Source: an uncultured Bacteroidales bacterium
Lineage (GTDB): Bacteria; Bacteroidota; Bacteroidia; Bacteroidales; VadinHA17
NCBI GenBank assembly: GCA_963844935.1
Contig: CAWJQH010000004.1
Coordinates: 733,058 to 797,057, forward strand
Direction: 5' to 3'
DNA length: 64,000 nucleotides
Shown here: one piece after another, positions 4,403-17,552 of the stretch
How positions within the stretch are numbered: the first letter of the stretch is position 1
Layout: every line of letters starts with the position of its first letter
Made by a program: the position numbers and the translations under genes
The notes under the pieces: generated by a model
Seen by the model: the letters and a program-made list of their open reading frames with translations, nothing else
What the model was told of the DNA's origin: nothing
Databases searched by the model: none

Positions 4403-4551
4403 TATTTATAACTCAATGATTATAACAATGAGATGATGTAAAAGTTTACAGGTTACCGCTTTCCGCAGGAATTTTAAGGCAATTGTTTTACAGGGGCGAC
4501 CACTTCAACATAATCCAAAAAAGTCGTAAATTCGCAGTTCATTGGTATTTG

Positions 4552-5796
4552 ATGAAGGAATTACAGAGTATAAAACAGAGATTTGGGATTATCGGCAATC
4601 ATGAAGGGCTCAACAGGGCGCTTGACATTGCAGTACAGGTAGCCCCCACTGATCTCTCCGTACTCATTACCGGTGAGAGCGGCACCGGCAAGGAGGTGTT
4701 CCCGCAGGTGATACACACATACAGCCTGCGCAAGCACGGTCCGTATATTGCCGTCAACTGCGGTGCCATTCCCGAAGGAACGATAAACTCAGAGCTTTTC
4801 GGCCATGAAAAAGGCGCCTTCACGGGAGCGACAGACAGCAGGAAGGGGTATTTCGAGGTTGCCGACGAAGGAACCATCTTTCTTGACGAAGTGGCTGAAC
4901 TTCCGCTATCAACACAGGTCAGGCTTCTAAGGGTGCTCGAGTCAGGGGAATTTATCAGGGTGGGATCATCAAAGGTGCAGAAGACAAATGTGCGGGTAAT
5001 AACCGCTACCAATATTGATATTGTTCAGGCTGTCTCTTCAGGCAGGTTCCGCGAGGACCTGTTTTACAGGCTCAACACAGTGCCTGTGAGGGTGCCTCCG
5101 CTGAGGGAGAGAGGAGAAGACATCATCCTGCTTTTCCGGAAGTTTGCCGTGGATTTCGCTGAGCGTTACCGCATGCCTGCAATCAGGCCTGACGGTCCTG
5201 CCAGGGAGATGCTGATAAATTATTACTGGCCGGGCAATGTCAGGCAGCTTAAGAACATCACTGAGCAGATATCCGTTATTGAGCAGGAACGTGAAGTTAC
5301 TGCAGTCATGCTGTCGCACTATCTGCCTGATTATGAAAGCGGGCGTCTTCCTGTTCCCGTCAGAAGTCCGGAAGGGAAAAACTTCAGTTCGGAAAGAGAG
5401 ATTCTATATAAGGTCCTCTTCGATATGAAGAGCGATATGCATGACCTGAAAAATCTTGTCTATGAGATGCTCAGCGCGGGAGGTGAAGTCACCGGCCTCA
5501 CTGAGACAGGTGTCAGGTCAGCGCGCAATCTTTTCAATGACAGTGCTGTACGCAAGGAGAGCATTGAGCCCCTGCGGCCGGTCACGGTTGGTTTCGGCAC
5601 ACCCAGGGAAAGAAACGATATACAGGATACTGAAGAGGTGGTTGAGGAATCGCTCTCACTGACTGACCGTGAGAAGGAGCTGATAATAAAGGCGCTCGAC
5701 AAGAACAACGGCAAACGCAAGCTGGCAGCGTCTGAGCTGGGTATTTCAGAGAGAACCCTGTACAGAAAAATCAAGGAATATGGTCTTGATACGTAA
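4552..5796 (+). CDS. Sigma-54-dependent Fis-family enhancer-binding protein
   Basis: Walker A GESGTGKE, GAFTGA loop, Walker B FLDE, C-terminal Fis HTH (LGISERTLYRKIKEY); ATG at 4552. Confidence 0.92.
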   Translation: MKELQSIKQRFGIIGNHEGLNRALDIAVQVAPTDLSVLITGESGTGKEVFPQVIHTYSLRKHGPYIAVNCGAIPEGTINSELFGHEKGAFTGATDSRKGYFEVADEGTIFLDEVAELPLSTQVRLLRVLESGEFIRVGSSKVQKTNVRVITATNIDIVQAVSSGRFREDLFYRLNTVPVRVPPLRERGEDIILLFRKFAVDFAERYRMPAIRPDGPAREMLINYYWPGNVRQLKNITEQISVIEQEREVTAVMLSHYLPDYESGRLPVPVRSPEGKNFSSEREILYKVLFDMKSDMHDLKNLVYEMLSAGGEVTGLTETGVRSARNLFNDSAVRKESIEPLRPVTVGFGTPRERNDIQDTEEVVEESLSLTDREKELIIKALDKNNGKRKLAASELGISERTLYRKIKEYGLDT

Positions 5797-6304
5797 TATA
5801 CCAAGGGTAATCATTACGCTGATACTCCTTGTCATGACTGAGAGCTGCGGGGTAAAAATAGGCTACTCATTTTCAGGAGTATCTGTTTCACCTGAGGTTA
5901 AAACTTTCAGTGTGGCAAACTTTCAGAACAGGGCCAGCCTTGTACAGCCCGGACTGTCACAGAGGCTCACCGACGCCCTGATGGATATGTGCCAGGCACA
6001 GACAAACCTTGATATGGTAACCTCAGGCGGTGATGTCAGCTTTGAGGGCGACATAACTGACTACAGAACGCAGCCTCTTACTGTCAGCGGCGATGAGCAG
6101 GCTGCCAGTAACCGTTTTTCAATCAGCGTCAGGGTAAAGTTCGTCAACACAGTTGATACCGAACTGAGTTATGAGCAGACGTTCACCCGTTATCAGGATT
6201 ATGACAGCTCGCTTGATCTGAGTGCGGTGGAGGTTGAGCTGGCTGAGGAGATTAGCAAGATGCTCATTGAGGATATCTTTAATAAGGCTTTTGTCAACTG
6301 GTGA
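5780..6304 (+). CDS. lptE: LptE-family LPS assembly lipoprotein
   Basis: Lipobox ESC, YSFSG motif, C-terminal EDIFNKAFVNW; usual Bacteroidota position after the sigma-54 activator. Confidence 0.7.
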   Translation: MVLIRNIPRVIITLILLVMTESCGVKIGYSFSGVSVSPEVKTFSVANFQNRASLVQPGLSQRLTDALMDMCQAQTNLDMVTSGGDVSFEGDITDYRTQPLTVSGDEQAASNRFSISVRVKFVNTVDTELSYEQTFTRYQDYDSSLDLSAVEVELAEEISKMLIEDIFNKAFVNW

Positions 6305-11934: not shown

Positions 11935-13740
11935 ATGAACCGGCCCGGCCAGATGGATAACATACGCAACTTTTGCATTATAGCACATATTGATCACGGC
12001 AAGAGTACTCTTGCGGACAGGCTGCTTGAAAAGACGAAGACAGTTGATGCGCGGGAATTCCAGAACCAGGTTCTGGATGACATGGATCTTGAGCGGGAGA
12101 GGGGCATCACGATTAAAAGCCATGCCATACAAATGGATTATGAGCAGGATGGCAGGAAGTATTATCTTAATCTCATTGACACCCCAGGTCATGTTGATTT
12201 CTCGTATGAGGTCTCACGGTCGATAGCCGCCTGTGAAGGTGCCTTGCTGGTTGTTGACGCTACACAGGGCATCCAGGCGCAGACAATCTCCAATCTGTAC
12301 ATGGCCATAGAACACGGTCTTGAAATAATACCCGTGCTGAACAAGATGGATTCCCCCAGCGCCATGCCTGAAGATGTCAAGGACCAGATAGTTGATCTTA
12401 TCGGTTGCAAGCGCGACGACATCATCGAAGCCAGTGCCCGTACAGGGATGGGCGTTGACCGCATCATGGAAGATATAATCTCAAAGATACCCCCGCCGAA
12501 GGGTGACCCTGAGGGTCCTTTACAGGCACTTATATTCGATTCGGTGTTCAACTCATTCAGGGGGATCATTGCATATTTCAAGATCGCCAACGGCACTGTC
12601 CATACACATGACAAGGTGAAATTTGTGAACACCGGCAGTGAATATGATGCTGATGAGATAGGGGTGCTCAAGATAAAGAGGGAACCGAGGGATGTCCTCA
12701 GCGCCGGCGACGTAGGATATATTATTTCAGGAATAAAAAACTCGGTTGAGGTAAAGGTTGGGGATACAATTACTCACGTTGAGCGTCCCTGCCAGCTTGC
12801 AATATCAGGATTTGCAGATGTGAAGCCGATGGTCTTTGCTGGCATTTATCCTGTTGATGCTGACGATTATGAAGATCTCCGGGCCTCAATAGAAAAACTG
12901 CAGCTCAATGATGCCTCCCTGACTTTTGTCCCGGAATCGTCTGCCGCCCTTGGCTTCGGCTTCCGTTGCGGCTTCCTGGGTTTGCTGCACATGGAGATTG
13001 TCCAGGAGCGCCTCGACAGGGAGTTTGATATGGATGTCATCACCACCGTGCCCAACGTTTCATTCAGGGTCCTGACTACAAAAGGTGACATCATTGATGT
13101 GCATAATCCGTCGGGGATGCCGCCGGTGACCACAATTGATGAGATAGAGGAGCCGTACATATATGCCCAGGTCATTTCAAAATCAGAGTATCTCGGGTCG
13201 ATCCTGAAGCTTTGCATTGACAAGAGAGGCACCATGAAGAACCAGGTCTACCTGACAAGCGACAGGGTGGAGGTGACATTCGACATGCCTCTTTCGGAGA
13301 TAGTTTTTGATTTCTATGACAAGCTGAAAAGCATTTCCAAGGGCTATGCATCTTTTGACTATCATATCACCGATTACAGGAAAGCAGACCTTGTCAGGCT
13401 TGATATACTGCTTAACGGCGAGATGGTCGATGCTCTCTCGACGCTTATTTACAGGGGCCATGCCTATGATTTTGGCAGGAGGATGTGTGAGAAACTGCGT
13501 GAACTTATCCCGAGACAACAGTTTGATATTGCCATCCAGGCAGCAATCGGTGCAAAGATAATTGCACGGGAGACCGTCAAGGCTGTGCGCAAGGATGTAA
13601 CCGCCAAGTGTTACGGCGGTGATATCACCCGCAAGAGAAAGCTGCTTGAGAAGCAGAAGAAAGGCAAGAAGCGGATGAGGCAGATCGGTAATGTGGAGGT
13701 TCCGCAGCAGGCTTTTCTTGCAGTGCTTAAGCTCGACTGA
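11935..13740 (+). CDS. lepA: Elongation factor 4 (LepA)
   Basis: [47 protein letters not shown]. True start may be 11953. Confidence 0.98.
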
Positions 13741-13797
13741 AATGAAAAAGTTGCACCCTGGTGTTGGAAATTAATATTTTTTGCTAACTTGGCGCTT

Positions 13798-13893
13798 CAC
13801 AGGGGGTTTGAAACGGAAGAATACTTGATCATAACCCTGAAATTGACCTAATCTAAATACCCCGTACGATATTTTCGTGCGGGGTATATTTTT
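13798..13893 (+). ncRNA. Candidate small RNA B (about 95 nt) between lepA and the rprY-like gene
   Basis: Promoter-like GTTG-N18-TAACTTGG (13763-13792); no ORF; ends in hairpin 13857-13887 whose single non-WC pair is G-U on the plus strand, then a T tail. Confidence 0.45.
13857..13893. terminator. Intrinsic terminator, probably bidirectional
   Basis: ATACCCCGTACGA-N5-TCGTGCGGGGTAT with short A/T tracts on both sides, between convergent genes. Confidence 0.8.
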
Positions 13894-14578
13894 AGCAGAG
13901 CAGCTTGTATCCCTTTCCGTGAATATTTAAAATCTCGACCTTCCGGTCCCTGCTGAGGTACTTGCGCAGCTTGGTGATGTAAACATCCATGCTCCTGGCA
14001 TTGAAGTAGTTGTCATCGATCCAGATAGATTTAAGGGCAAAATTGCGTTCCAGGACCTGGTTGCGGTTACGGCAGAGCAGTTCGAGAAGCTCGGACTCCT
14101 TGGTGGTCAGTTTCTGTGACTGTTCCCTGAATGTCAGTAACTGTTTTGCGACATCAAAAGTGAATTCCCCGATTGTGTACCTATCCCTGGGCGCTTCATC
14201 CTCACGTTTGGATGACCGCCGGAGAATGGCTTCAATGCGGTACACCAGCTCCTCCATCGAAAATGGTTTTGTCAGGTAATCATCAGCTCCGGACTTGAAT
14301 CCTTCTATGACATCCTGCTTGAGGTTCTTGGCTGTGAGAAATATAACCGGAATATGCGGGTCTATCGCCCTTATCTCCCTTGCAAGCGTAAAGCCGTCCA
14401 TCTCGGGCATCATCACGTCGAGAAGACAGAGGTTGAATTTTTCCTTCCTGTAAAGCTTCAGGGCCTGGGCTCCGTCGGTGACCAGCGCAGTGTCATACTC
14501 TTTCACACTGAGGTAATTTTTCAGCAACTGACCCAGGTTGGGATCGTCTTCAGCAAGTAAAATGCTTACTTTTTTCAT
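13892..14578 (-). CDS. rprY: OmpR-family response regulator, RprY-like
   Basis: Receiver LLDVMMPEMDG; winged helix WIDDNYFNARSMDVYITKLRKYL typical of Bacteroidota RprY. Confidence 0.8.
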   Translation of the reverse strand: MKKVSILLAEDDPNLGQLLKNYLSVKEYDTALVTDGAQALKLYRKEKFNLCLLDVMMPEMDGFTLAREIRAIDPHIPVIFLTAKNLKQDVIEGFKSGADDYLTKPFSMEELVYRIEAILRRSSKREDEAPRDRYTIGEFTFDVAKQLLTFREQSQKLTTKESELLELLCRNRNQVLERNFALKSIWIDDNYFNARSMDVYITKLRKYLSRDRKVEILNIHGKGYKLLC

Positions 14579-16113
14579 TTTGGCTGATCTTTTGGAAGAT
14601 GAATGATTATTCTGGAACCTTTGTTGATCTGGCTTTCAACTTTGATTGTGCCGTTGTGTTCATCAACGATTTTCTTTACAAAGCTCAGACCCAGCCCGAA
14701 TCCTTTAATATTATGTGTATTGCCTGCCGGCACCCTGTAGAATTTCTCAAAAATATGTTTCTGATGTTCCCTCGGGATGCCGATACCGTTATCAGAAACA
14801 GTGATTGTTATGCCCCTGCTGTAAGCTCTTGTGGAAATGGTTATCTCAGGCACCTGGGTTGTATATTTGAGTGCATTGTCGATGAGATTGATGAAAACAT
14901 TGAAGAAATTGGCTTCATCGATGAACACCACCGGGTCAGTTGCATCGAGGAAAGTTGATATCACTCCGCCCCGGCCGTTAACCTGCAGTTTAAATGCATC
15001 AACGGCTCTGAGGATCACCTCGTGAATATCCGTTTCATGCCTGTCGAGCTCGATCTTCGACTTTTCAAAGATTGCGGTCTGAAGCACTTTTTCAACCAGG
15101 ATCCTCAGTCTGTTGCTCTCCTCATTGATGACGGAAGCAAGTCCATGGGTGTCCCTTGATTTCTCGGGTATTTTTGGATCAGCGAGCATCTGTGATGCCA
15201 GCGAGATTGTGGCTATCGGGGTCTTCAGCTCGTGGGTCATGTTGTTGATGAAGTCGCCCTTAATCTCCGAGAGCTTTTTCTGTCGGAAGATGACAATGAA
15301 TGTGCTTGTTGAGAGGATAATCAGCAGGAGGGCTATAAGCATGGATGCGATTGCCATGAAGGAAATACGGCTGAATTTGTACTTTTCCTCATCAGGAAAG
15401 TATATTGAAAGGATATTGTTGCCGGGAACAGGGTCATTGGGGAAGAGCTGACGGAGGTATTTGTTCGCCCCTGATCTCTCGCTGTAGTTGGGAGTACGGT
15501 ATATTATTCCACCGTAATCGCCCCTGACGGCACATTCGTAACTGAGGTGAATGCCGACAGCGTCAAGCGACTGCCTGATCTGCTTATTTAAGTCATCGGA
15601 TGTGAACCGGTCACGCAACGGAGGTGTCTCATGCAGGATACGGCTGACAATGTTCTCAATGGAGATTACCTTGCTTGTCATGCGGTCGGTGGCGCCGGCA
15701 GTAAGGCTCAGCGCTTCATTCCCGGCGTCGCCGACAGAAGATTCAGCCAGTAAGCTGTCGGAACTCAGAAGATATGTCCGCCCTGCCCTGTTTATAACCA
15801 CTGACCTGACACCGGGATGGAAGCCGTATTTCTCCAGCAGCCTCTCCTCTGCCGTCTGCCCCTGAGCCTCATTGCTTAAATCATCTCCCTGATCCTCCTG
15901 AGGAACCGGGTTGATTTCATTTATGATACGGTTATAAGTCTCTGCCTTTTCAAGTTCCGACACAACTTCCTTCAACGCATCATTGACACTGAACCTGAAA
16001 GCCTGGTCTTCAGCGCGGGATACGCTGTTTATCCACCTGACCTGGATAAAAACCAGGGCAGAAATGGCTAAAAAGAAAAAGACTGCCAGAAGGACTGTGT
16101 ACTCACGCTTCAT
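14575..16113 (-). CDS. rprX: Sensor histidine kinase, RprX-like
   Basis: Two TM helices; H-box FINNMTHELKTP; NLIDNALKY; GFGLGL; 4-bp overlap with the regulator gene. Confidence 0.78.
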   Translation of the reverse strand: MKREYTVLLAVFFFLAISALVFIQVRWINSVSRAEDQAFRFSVNDALKEVVSELEKAETYNRIINEINPVPQEDQGDDLSNEAQGQTAEERLLEKYGFHPGVRSVVINRAGRTYLLSSDSLLAESSVGDAGNEALSLTAGATDRMTSKVISIENIVSRILHETPPLRDRFTSDDLNKQIRQSLDAVGIHLSYECAVRGDYGGIIYRTPNYSERSGANKYLRQLFPNDPVPGNNILSIYFPDEEKYKFSRISFMAIASMLIALLLIILSTSTFIVIFRQKKLSEIKGDFINNMTHELKTPIATISLASQMLADPKIPEKSRDTHGLASVINEESNRLRILVEKVLQTAIFEKSKIELDRHETDIHEVILRAVDAFKLQVNGRGGVISTFLDATDPVVFIDEANFFNVFINLIDNALKYTTQVPEITISTRAYSRGITITVSDNGIGIPREHQKHIFEKFYRVPAGNTHNIKGFGLGLSFVKKIVDEHNGTIKVESQINKGSRIIIHLPKDQPK

Positions 16114-16284
16114 CTTATTGCAAATGTAACTTTAAAGAGCCTTAATACACTGGTTTAACCAACTTTAACAACTATTACAGAAAAAAATCAGGCTGCGGAA
16201 AAGTTAAAAAAGTGTTAAATATCAATAAATTAACATATCGTTAAGAAAGAAGTCAGGAAATTATTTTCATATTTGCACTGTTAA

Positions 16285-16299
16285 TGGCACGAAAATTGT
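16285..16299 (+). promoter_or_regulatory. Sigma-54 (-24/-12) promoter
   Basis: TGGCACG-AAAA-TTGT versus consensus TGGCACG-N4-TTGC. Confidence 0.65.
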
Positions 16300-16309
16300 G
16301 ATAGTATAT

Positions 16310-16390
16310 TTGGAGTTTTTTTCATAGGTTAGGTTAGTTTTAGGGTTAACACTGAAGAGGAGGCAAGAAATTGTCTCCTCTTCCATTTTT
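16310..16390 (+). ncRNA. Candidate sigma-54-dependent small RNA A (about 80 nt)
   Basis: Follows the -24/-12 box; GU-rich body TTTTTTCATAGGTTAGGTTAGTTTTAGGGTT; terminator hairpin 16354-16383 with plus-strand G-U pair and T tail; no ORF. Confidence 0.55.
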
Positions 16391-16817
16391 ACAGTACCAG
16401 CAAGGGGATGTTTTTATCGCTGAGGTCGCTGCTGTCAAACAGGAATACTGCTGTTACTTCCGGGATGTTCCTTACCTCCGCCGCCAGCGTTTCTGCCAGC
16501 TTCCTGTCGGGTGCGCCGTGTATCAGCAGCAGGAAGTCAATATTCTTAAGCTTTCTGATCAATGTCCCGCCCATGCTTCTGTTCGAGACAAGTGAAAAGG
16601 TTAACGGTGCAGAGGTAAATACTGAATAAGAATGAGTTTTCTCGCCGGATCCTTCTGTTATTTCTTCCGGTTTTTTCCGCAGATCGATGCCAAGGTGCCT
16701 GTTCAGCATCACGGATAGCCGGTAATCCGGTTCAGAGGATACAATTCCCAGTATCAGGAAAGGGGGAATCTCTTCGGCCCGGATAGTATGTTTGGTTATT
16801 TTTCCCGCAGGGCTCAT
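16389..16817 (-). CDS. IPExxxVDY-family protein
   Basis: LGIVSSEPDYRLSVMLN and LIRKLKNIDFLL pattern; downstream of rnc as is common in Bacteroidota. Confidence 0.65.
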   Translation of the reverse strand: MSPAGKITKHTIRAEEIPPFLILGIVSSEPDYRLSVMLNRHLGIDLRKKPEEITEGSGEKTHSYSVFTSAPLTFSLVSNRSMGGTLIRKLKNIDFLLLIHGAPDRKLAETLAAEVRNIPEVTAVFLFDSSDLSDKNIPLLVL

Positions 16818-17552
16818 ACCTTAGCTGTTACGGTCTTGTTCCAGGCAACCATTGATGCCTCCTGTTCTGCTTCTTTCTTTGATGCTCCTTCACCATGAGC
16901 TATCGTTTCATCATTGATCTCAAGGGAAACCCTGAAAAGGGGATGTGAGTTGTTCTGAATGGCCACTTCCTGAAAGGAATAGTGCAGTTTCAGCTTGTTC
17001 TTCTGGCAATACTCAAGGATCAGACTCTTATAATCAGTTTCCGACTTCAGCACTTCATCAAGGTTAAGGTACTTCTTCAGGACCTTTTCAATGAAGAAGC
17101 GATGTGTGCGGATGTATCCTGTATCAATAAACAGTGCGCCTATGAGGGCTTCCAGTGCATTTCCGTAAAGGTTGGGCGGGATGGTGCCTGACGACAGGTT
17201 CGATACTATCAGGTTGTCTAGTTTCATTGAGATGCCGAGCTGGTTAAGCGTCTCCCGGCTGACGATACGTGCCCTGGTCTTTGTCAGGAAGCCTTCGGAT
17301 GCCTCGGGGTAAAGGTGAAAAAGGTAATCGGAGATTATACCGTCAATGATTGCATCGCCCAGATATTCGAGCCGTTCGTTGTTGACCCGGGAGCCGTCAG
17401 CCAAGGGTGTATGAAGCTGAGCGGTGAATGAAAGCCATCTCGTACAGACGCAGGTTCGAGGGCCTGCAGCCAAGCATGTTCTTCAGGCGCAACCGGAAGT
17501 CGCGTCTGTCAAGTACAAGAGTGTTGTTTTCTTTCCTGCGAAGGAGGAACAC
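16814..17552 (-). CDS. rnc: Ribonuclease III (single-base frameshift near 17401)
   Basis: NERLEYLGDA, NALEALIGA and dsRBD GEGASKKEAEQ; N-terminus VFLLRR...LYEMAFIHRS reads from GTG 17552 in another frame. Confidence 0.9.

Follow-up and report, generated by a model that had tools for sequence, protein, structure and literature searches.

A putative FopS-like small RNA with a sigma-54-type promoter and its candidate partner RNA beside an RprXY-like operon in uncultured Bacteroidales

Two short non-coding units that are complementary to each other, here termed A and B, lie on either side of an RprXY-like two-component operon in an uncultured Bacteroidales bacterium (VadinHA17; assembly GCA_963844935.1, contig CAWJQH010000004.1). 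The window, which is the whole stretch of DNA analysed, comprises 64,000 nt of a 3.95-Mb genome, and coordinates given without a contig are positions in this window (733,058-797,057 of the contig). Both units are conserved together with their promoter boxes, folds and complementarity, and we suggest, with a probability of roughly one half, that B is a sigma-54-driven small RNA (sRNA) resembling FopS and that A is a dedicated partner (sponge) RNA of B. An sRNA and an antagonist at this place had been supposed in an earlier note on the window; B is presumably the regulator and A the sponge.

The two units and their complementarity

Unit A (13798..13893, + strand) is a candidate sRNA of ~95 nt composed of a 5' hairpin (~13800-13839), an open linker and a terminator, and its start was deduced from the -7-like box upstream. 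Unit B (16311..16390, +) is a candidate sRNA of ~80 nt with an unpaired G/U-rich 5' part and one terminator, its start being deduced from the -12 element. The segment TAACCCTGAAATTGACCTAATCTA of A (13832-13855, +) can pair with the segment TAGGTTAGGTTAGTTTTAGGGTTA of B (16325-16348, +) at 24 of 24 positions, with 20 Watson-Crick (WC) and 4 G-U pairs and 0 mismatches, and our script count thus agrees with the pairing given in the earlier note. On the - strand the same segments give 20 WC pairs and 4 mismatches. The G-U positions had been read as a sign of selection on RNA; they are indeed G-U on the + strand only, but the argument is weakened by the G/U-rich composition of B. Within A, block I (TAACCC) forms the 3' arm of the hairpin, while block II (TTGACCTAA) is located in the open linker. 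Both segments lie, as had been noted, in units free of open reading frames (ORFs); these are conserved as units, and no conserved ORF was found in unit A.

Each segment is followed by a + strand terminator, again in agreement with the earlier description, and by eye each of the two hairpins contains one + strand G-U pair. The terminator hairpin of A (13857..13887, +) has a T run to 13893 and abuts the stop of the convergent regulator gene; 8/20 of its predicted pairs show compensatory changes, and many G-U but no A-C cells are seen on the + strand. The terminator hairpin of B (16354..16383, +) was located by a terminator search and has 5 pairs with a compensatory change, while + strand G-U occurs at one pair in 15/20 rows and at another in 10/20. 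The compensatory changes and the many + strand G-U pairs indicate that the B terminator is a + strand RNA hairpin. The minimum free energy of A is -32.2 kcal/mol (z -5.16) on the + strand versus -24.6 on the - strand, and the corresponding values for B are -24.2 and -16.6.

An inverted-repeat search of the region ranks the 24-nt pair first (83% complementary, 2469 nt apart). Two arms with 83% DNA complementarity around a 2.5-kb segment could also be a DNA-level feature, either inverted repeats of an invertible or once-mobile operon segment or the relic of a B-like inverted duplication, and the 5' arm of the A hairpin is B-like in some genera, so that a duplication origin is possible. This explanation is nearly excluded by the single orientation in all 77 loci examined (20 from the genus and 57 from other genera), by the lack of a recombinase domain among the neighbouring genes, and by the non-WC positions, which pair as G-U on the + strand only. 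Moreover, the likeness to the reverse complement of B stops at the 24-nt segment, and the single 'opposite strands' joint (14175/15214, one contig, depth 3) is not at the arms. The earlier note had named inversion of the intervening segment as an outcome that would speak against its proposal; all of these loci show the one orientation instead.

The rank of the pair within the genome, a check that the note had suggested, was determined by a gapless WC/G-U scan with the 41-nt unpaired part of B on both strands of the whole genome. The site in A is the top non-self place, with a score of 50 against 43 for the next one, and only the antisense of B (96) and that of a B paralogue (58) outscore it. 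When B was subjected to mononucleotide shuffling, 1/20 shuffles reached a genome-wide maximum of at least 50 and the other 19 reached 40-46; the match in one genome alone is hence about a 1-in-20 event. Co-folding of full-length A and B gives a net value of -25.6 kcal/mol with both terminators kept, while shuffling of the 5' part of B (n=100) gives a mean of -5.3 and a best value of -12.5, and 0/100 shuffles reach the real value. Co-folding was used instead of RNAduplex runs of B against whole spacers with shuffled B, which yielded a noisy and broad null. Conservation in relatives is a stronger argument for the pairing than these single-genome statistics.

Other places complementary to B were also found in this genome. 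Predicted B sites include many start codons of signal-peptide proteins, two of them of >1000 aa; an enrichment is not claimed. One site (contig C4:288136-288176, +) is found shortly before the start codon of a 508-aa ORF that belongs to no Pfam family, and its predicted duplex has -35.0 kcal/mol. A further site (contig C5:105749-105840, -) falls on a stop codon, immediately ahead of a terminator, and follows a 490-aa ORF that weakly matches an outer membrane protein beta-barrel. Contig C5 also contains a G-poor, C/A/U-rich non-coding unit with a terminator (C5:657239-657409, -; ~1440-1610 of locus L285), which is kept in 39/40 genus relatives (76-93% identity, with ~70 nt nearly invariant). 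It carries UUACCCU twice as well as UUAACCU and forms 18 contiguous base pairs with B (-30.4 kcal/mol, predicted), and a search of Rfam placed it in no family above threshold. It is conceivable that B-type sRNAs have a second partner RNA in this unit.

Conservation in relatives and the weighing of explanations

The relatives compared here are not independent, and the counts describe the data and are not probabilities. Unit B is widespread: its covariance model (R1, with which B itself scores 107.7 bits) finds matches in 125/151 genomes of the family and in 16/20 genera, and the 24-nt pairing segment is identical in 20/20 genus relatives covering the locus, whereas the kinase has an identity of only 60-91%. 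Beyond the family, R1 matches only 8/149 other families sampled from the order, and weakly. The distant B-like copies have the canonical TAnnTTTG promoter, possess no -24/-12 box and are not adjoined by a kinase of this kind; judged by these traits they look like ordinary FopS-type genes.

Two copies of B are present in this genome, and tandem second copies occur in some other genera. The paralogue (contig C5:63612-63688, -; 1501-1577 of locus L037) has the same 5' 37 nt and a different terminator; its 5' part contains one U fewer and CACG in place of CAUA. A TAAATTTG box is located ~12 nt upstream of it, with no -24/-12 box, and the paralogue has a cation-efflux gene on one side and, on the other, a convergent gene for a histidine kinase, itself preceded by a gene for a sigma-54 activator. 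In tandem behind B, a further gene for a FopS-like sRNA (..UUUUCAUAACUUAGGUUUUAGGUUUUAGGGUUAG.. with its own terminator) is present at L134-L141 (genus g18), L114 (g31), L116-L117 (g28) and L122 (g36). At locus L015 (genome G007) three additional, nearly identical hairpin units (ggtaccatggaggagg..ctctcctctt) come after the B terminator, and these extra hairpins are a local tandem amplification of that terminator.

The promoter assigned to B is of the sigma-54 type (TGGCAC-N5-TTGT, 16285..16299, +), and it stands where the earlier note had placed it. TGG[CT]A[CT]-N5-TTG is found ahead of 65/71 family B copies, and in 60 of those 65 the -24/-12 box lies 13-14 nt before the first conserved RNA base. 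This fixed spacing places the box where a sigma-54 start should fall, while a TAnnTTTG box directly before B is seen in only 3/21 genus loci. B has retained both this box and its + strand terminator, in support of the earlier proposal. The genome encodes RpoN (rpoN, 1 Sigma54_DBD match) and five bacterial enhancer-binding proteins (bEBPs; 5 strong Sigma54_activat matches). The regulator next to B is of OmpR type and not a bEBP, and cannot itself activate a sigma-54 promoter. Window positions 4483-6304 (+) hold a sigma-54 activator of 437 aa (4483-5796), PspF-like and without a receiver domain, followed directly by lptE; this orphan protein, 11 kb away, is a candidate activator of B. Another of the five bEBP genes adjoins the B paralogue. 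The same activator-lptE gene pair is described for Flavobacterium psychrophilum, where the sigma-54 regulon is reported to cover envelope-stress functions (PMC9723704).

Unit A occupies the spacer between lepA and the regulator gene. Its candidate promoter (13764..13792, +) consists of a TTG at ~-33 (13764-13766) and the -7-like box TAACTTGG (13785-13792), which is present at the place noted before. In 13 genus copies neither TTG nor TA..TT.G varies, and the genus alignment shows a TAACTTAG box as well as a conserved 5' stretch. TA..TT.G is also invariant in 31 A copies from 8 genera, mostly in the variant form TAnnTTAG. The 'housekeeping' promoter attributed to A is therefore conserved as a -7-like box, but not in the canonical form TAnnTTTG. 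Besides this box, the linker T.ACCT and the terminator core are invariant across the 31 copies, and the hairpin-linker-terminator fold is predicted in nearly all of them. Block I (UAACCC, UAAUCC, CUUAA etc.) is found in the 3' arm of the hairpin and block II (YUAACCUA) in the unpaired linker; the hairpin arms vary between genera, while the complementarity within the hairpin stays.

The distribution of A is patchy. It is present in 12/18 genus loci covering the spacer but absent from the four closest relatives, two of which lack it wholly and two of which have it reduced to the terminator. Model R2, which gives A 80.8 bits, identifies one copy per genome in 33/39 genus genomes. From other genera 60 B loci were retrieved, of which 52 cover the lepA-regulator spacer, and A occurs in 25 of these 52 (g19 4/4, g25 1/1, g32 1/1, g28 2/2, g18 5/8 and g27 12/22); it was found in none of the spacer loci of g23, g30, g33, g34, g35 and g36. 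Matches to R2 in other genera are weaker, each being on the strand of B and ~2.5 kb upstream of it. Since R2 was built from the genus only, it undercounts elsewhere, as in g27 with 7/39 genomes against 12/22 loci by synteny. Absence from so many B loci implies that A is dispensable.

The position of A behind lepA allows another explanation, in which A is the regulated thing, being the 3' end of the lepA mRNA or an sRNA derived from it, and B alters the stability of the lepA mRNA or of A. No terminator is present between the lepA stop (13740) and unit A, and lepA transcripts would thus read through A to the A terminator and should carry the site; the site at C5:105749-105840, which likewise falls on a stop codon with a terminator right behind it, and the universal B beside a patchy A fit this explanation as well. 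We nevertheless regard it as unlikely, because A keeps a -7-like box of its own in 8 genera and, the fold apart, has nothing conserved but the B-complementary part. In several relatives, moreover, only a few bases separate the lepA stop from the regulator stop, with no 3' untranslated region, which indicates that lepA does not need the A element.

Is the pairing itself kept? When each A was co-folded with its own B, 0/25 shuffles of the 5' part of B reached the real gain in 26/29 pairs from 8 genera, and the complementarity that the earlier note wished to see conserved in relatives is conserved to this extent. Within the genus a 19-bp core is kept, and the 6 variable A columns alternate between WC and G-U only, with 3 single mismatch cells. 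A two-sided change is visible by eye in g25, where B has AGG instead of GGG and A has CCU instead of CCC. In a swap test, the A units of g1, g19, g27, g32 and g25 pair best with their own B type. A pattern search of five other families for RNAs that could partner their FopS-like sRNAs as A does for B gave the antisense strands of the sRNA genes themselves and a few matches, no commoner than those of a control pattern.

Several points weigh against the proposed sRNA and sponge. The pairing within this genome alone is only borderline, with 1/20 shuffles equal, and the B site before the start codon of an unrelated gene is predicted to be equally stable (-35.0 vs -35.1 kcal/mol). A is absent from ~1/3 to 1/2 of the loci having B. 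The three pairs that fail the co-folding comparison are all from g18, where 1-3/25 shuffles reach the own-pair value; the A units of g18, g28 and g31 pair better with the B type of another genus, and in these same three genera the tandem second sRNA equals or surpasses B in its pairing with A. As B is G/U-rich, 16/19 core positions tolerate a transition anyway, and the one-sided changes are thus weak evidence; as B is invariant within four genera, only one event (g25) speaks for two-sided covariation of A and B. Most g27 loci (L142-L164) and some genus loci (L020-L026) have a canonical TAnnTTTG box 44-45 nt upstream of B, and this box could be a second promoter that yields a longer B transcript with the 'sigma-54 box' inside the RNA. 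Finally, we infer transcription, start sites, pairing in vivo, direction of control and the nuclease from sequence. Contigs from RNA libraries of related organisms cover 16319-16388 as well as 16315-16348 with 138 nt upstream; their strand and ends are not visible, the assembly graphs branch at the end of the conserved block, and these contigs were not used.

Some of these points would also be expected if both sRNAs were real and their pairing functionless. A common motif, serving for instance an RNA-binding protein of the RRM type or start regions rich in A, would then have shaped the C/A-rich A and the G/U-rich B, and complementary motifs of low complexity would match by composition. TTAGG-like repeats make up B, the genome has one RRM_1 gene, and the second, more conserved C/A-rich unit (C5:657239-657409) also pairs with B over 18 bp; the equal site found by 1/20 shuffles and the three genera in which the own pairing is not the best point in the same direction. 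We consider this explanation quite unlikely, since the co-folding gain is far above that of composition-matched shuffles in 26/29 pairs, A and B stay linked across genera, and the conserved blocks of A are exact complements of the two conserved blocks of B.

Proposed mechanism and relation to described systems

In the interpretation that we favour, B would be a trans-acting sRNA of the FopS/GibS type, with a G/U-rich unpaired 5' part, a UUUUUCAU seed and one terminator. In this family it would be transcribed from a sigma-54 promoter, which implies that it is switched on by an enhancer-binding activator. Transcription of A would start at its own -7-like promoter, and A would probably also form the tail of lepA transcripts. 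What is conserved in A would in effect be a binding site for B, presented between hairpin and terminator, in which the linker (YUAACCUA) and the 3' arm of the hairpin (UAACCC) are complementary to the unpaired part of B. We suppose that B pairs first with the open linker and then opens the A hairpin to give the 24-bp duplex in this genome, and that the duplex takes free B and its paralogues away from their mRNA targets. The A-B duplex is probably cut by RNase III, for which 19-24 bp would be a natural substrate. A would thereby be a dedicated sponge and give the sigma-54 response a threshold. Given that A is dispensable and patchily distributed, and that B occurs almost everywhere and has further predicted sites, a sponge appears to be the simplest mechanism.

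A may alternatively be an sRNA-controlled terminator switch and not a passive sponge, so that A, the regulator, the kinase and B form one circuit, which we think very improbable. Sigma-54-induced B would then pair with nascent A at a site that ends one base before the A terminator stem, and the GGAG at the 5' side of B would reach the CCCC of the stem and weaken termination. Read-through from the A promoter and from lepA would run antisense into the convergent rprY-rprX operon, and the resulting double-stranded RNA would shut the two-component system down.

The note had not recognised the pair as a described system. This holds for A, as no A-like partner RNA was found in print, but not entirely for B, which resembles FopS and GibS. 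A scan of the region with Rfam, a check that the note had also suggested, gave nothing above threshold. The best sub-threshold match of B is FopS (RF04319), with 29.7 bits against a gathering score of 56, aligned over the full model (1-71) at 16315-16390. The paralogue on contig C5 reaches 29.5 bits, and the two were hence not taken as members of FopS; GibS membership (RF04182) was likewise rejected, with 19 bits against a gathering score of 115.

The likeness to FopS extends over the whole RNA. B agrees with it in size (~65-80 nt), in an unpaired G-U-rich 5' part with ...UUUUUCAU and UUAG..UUUA.GGUUAA, and in its single terminator, and the two share GU.UUUUUCAU and UUAG.UUUA.GGUUAA. The FopS-like 5' seed GUUUUUUUCA(U) at 16315..16324 (+) was recognised by alignment to the FopS consensus, and its CAU can, by sequence, pair with start codons. 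Like FopS, B has an unpaired 5' part with a U-rich ...CAU seed and thereafter only a Rho-independent terminator. B also differs from FopS in several respects, having a promoter of the sigma-54 type in place of the canonical one, 2 copies as opposed to 14, and a fixed position beside a two-component operon.

FopS and GibS of Bacteroides thetaiotaomicron are described as pairing with the start regions of susC-type mRNAs and as being countered by the protein RbpB (PMC11697453, PMC7366714). FopS is represented by 14 genes there, which have the canonical TAnnTTTG promoter, and the role of the seed has been described (PMC11697453; Nat Commun 2025). A further difference is that B has a conserved complementary RNA, which is not mentioned for FopS in the parts of that paper available to us, where the antagonist is the protein RbpB (PMC11697453). 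RbpB is also the only antagonist of FopS-type sRNAs that we found described in the portions of the literature covered; in Bacteroides it binds FopS, which represses at susC-type start regions, and one RRM_1 gene is found in the present genome. GibS shares an R1-type 5' seed with FopS and has a non-canonical promoter (PM2), in which it is like B; PM2 is reported as a near-palindromic -10/-30 motif, however, and not as -24/-12, and GibS is longer and has a second seed (PMC7366714).

Sponges and sigma-54-dependent sRNAs are well known in Proteobacteria, according to the sources consulted. The Qrr sRNAs of Vibrio cholerae, for instance, are described as requiring sigma-54 and LuxO, and QrrX is reportedly a sponge of them. 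The Qrr/QrrX system involves Hfq and RNase E, and to our knowledge Bacteroidota lack Hfq. The resemblance is one of analogy, in that a sigma-54/bEBP-dependent sRNA would have its free pool set by a separately transcribed base-pairing sponge; the sequences and the phylum are unrelated, and no comparable kinase/regulator pair is syntenic there.

Two further antagonists are comparable with A. SroC, the sponge of GcvB, is likewise an RNA that is described as mainly pairing with and inactivating an sRNA, but it is cut out of an mRNA, whereas A has its own promoter box (PMC4474525). In Campylobacter an antagonist pairs with an sRNA, and the long duplex is reported to be cut by RNase III; that antagonist is antisense at the same locus, while A lies 2.5 kb away on the same strand (PMC8687705). 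No base-pairing sponge or sigma-54-dependent sRNA for Bacteroidota was found in the portions of the literature searched, and the word 'sponge' is absent from a 2026 review of gut-commensal sRNAs.

Gene neighbourhood and significance

Across genera the gene order lepA - A - regulator - kinase - B is preserved, in a single orientation throughout. The lepA (EF4) gene (11935..13740, +) was identified by the Pfam domains GTP_EFTU and LepA_C. It is followed, beyond A, by the gene for an RprY-like response regulator of the OmpR family (13892..14578, -; Response_reg, Trans_reg_C), whose best NCBIfam match is RespRegRprY with 355 bits (cut-off 370), the next best having 187.6 bits. The RprX-like partner, a sensor histidine kinase (14575..16113, -; HisKA, HATPase_c), is located at most ~3.4 kb from B in 57/60 loci of other genera. 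B is divergent from this rprXY-like operon and sits between the start of the kinase gene and the end of the next gene, an ORF of the IPExxxVDY family (16389-16817, -), which is followed by rnc (16814-17473, -). The earlier note had drawn rnc, the gene for RNase III, into the circuit; rnc and orf142 adjoin B only within the genus, and rnc was dropped as part of the system, since this link has no comparative support.

Several short motifs are located around the kinase start and the B promoter. A direct repeat, TTTAAC-N4-TTTAAC (16154..16169), lies upstream of the kinase promoter in the window and in the genus loci and may be a site for the OmpR-type regulator. An inverted repeat, TGTTAA-N11-TTAACA (16213..16235), lies ~50-70 nt upstream of the -24 element, is kept in the genus loci and may be a site for the activator (bEBP). 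The kinase gene itself has a TACATTTG box only 7 nt ahead of its ATG (16111-16128, -), and the kinase mRNA is hence probably leaderless or nearly so.

All carriers of the module found so far are uncultured. Pairing of the A-B type appears not to have been described yet in this phylum, and the small-RNA biology of Bacteroidota is a young field. If the proposed roles are true, A would be the first candidate anti-sRNA in Bacteroidota, and the pair would link the sigma-54 regulon to post-transcriptional control of the FopS-like kind. The module would then be compact and conserved, and the repeated natural loss of A would offer a ready comparison between genomes with and without the partner RNA.

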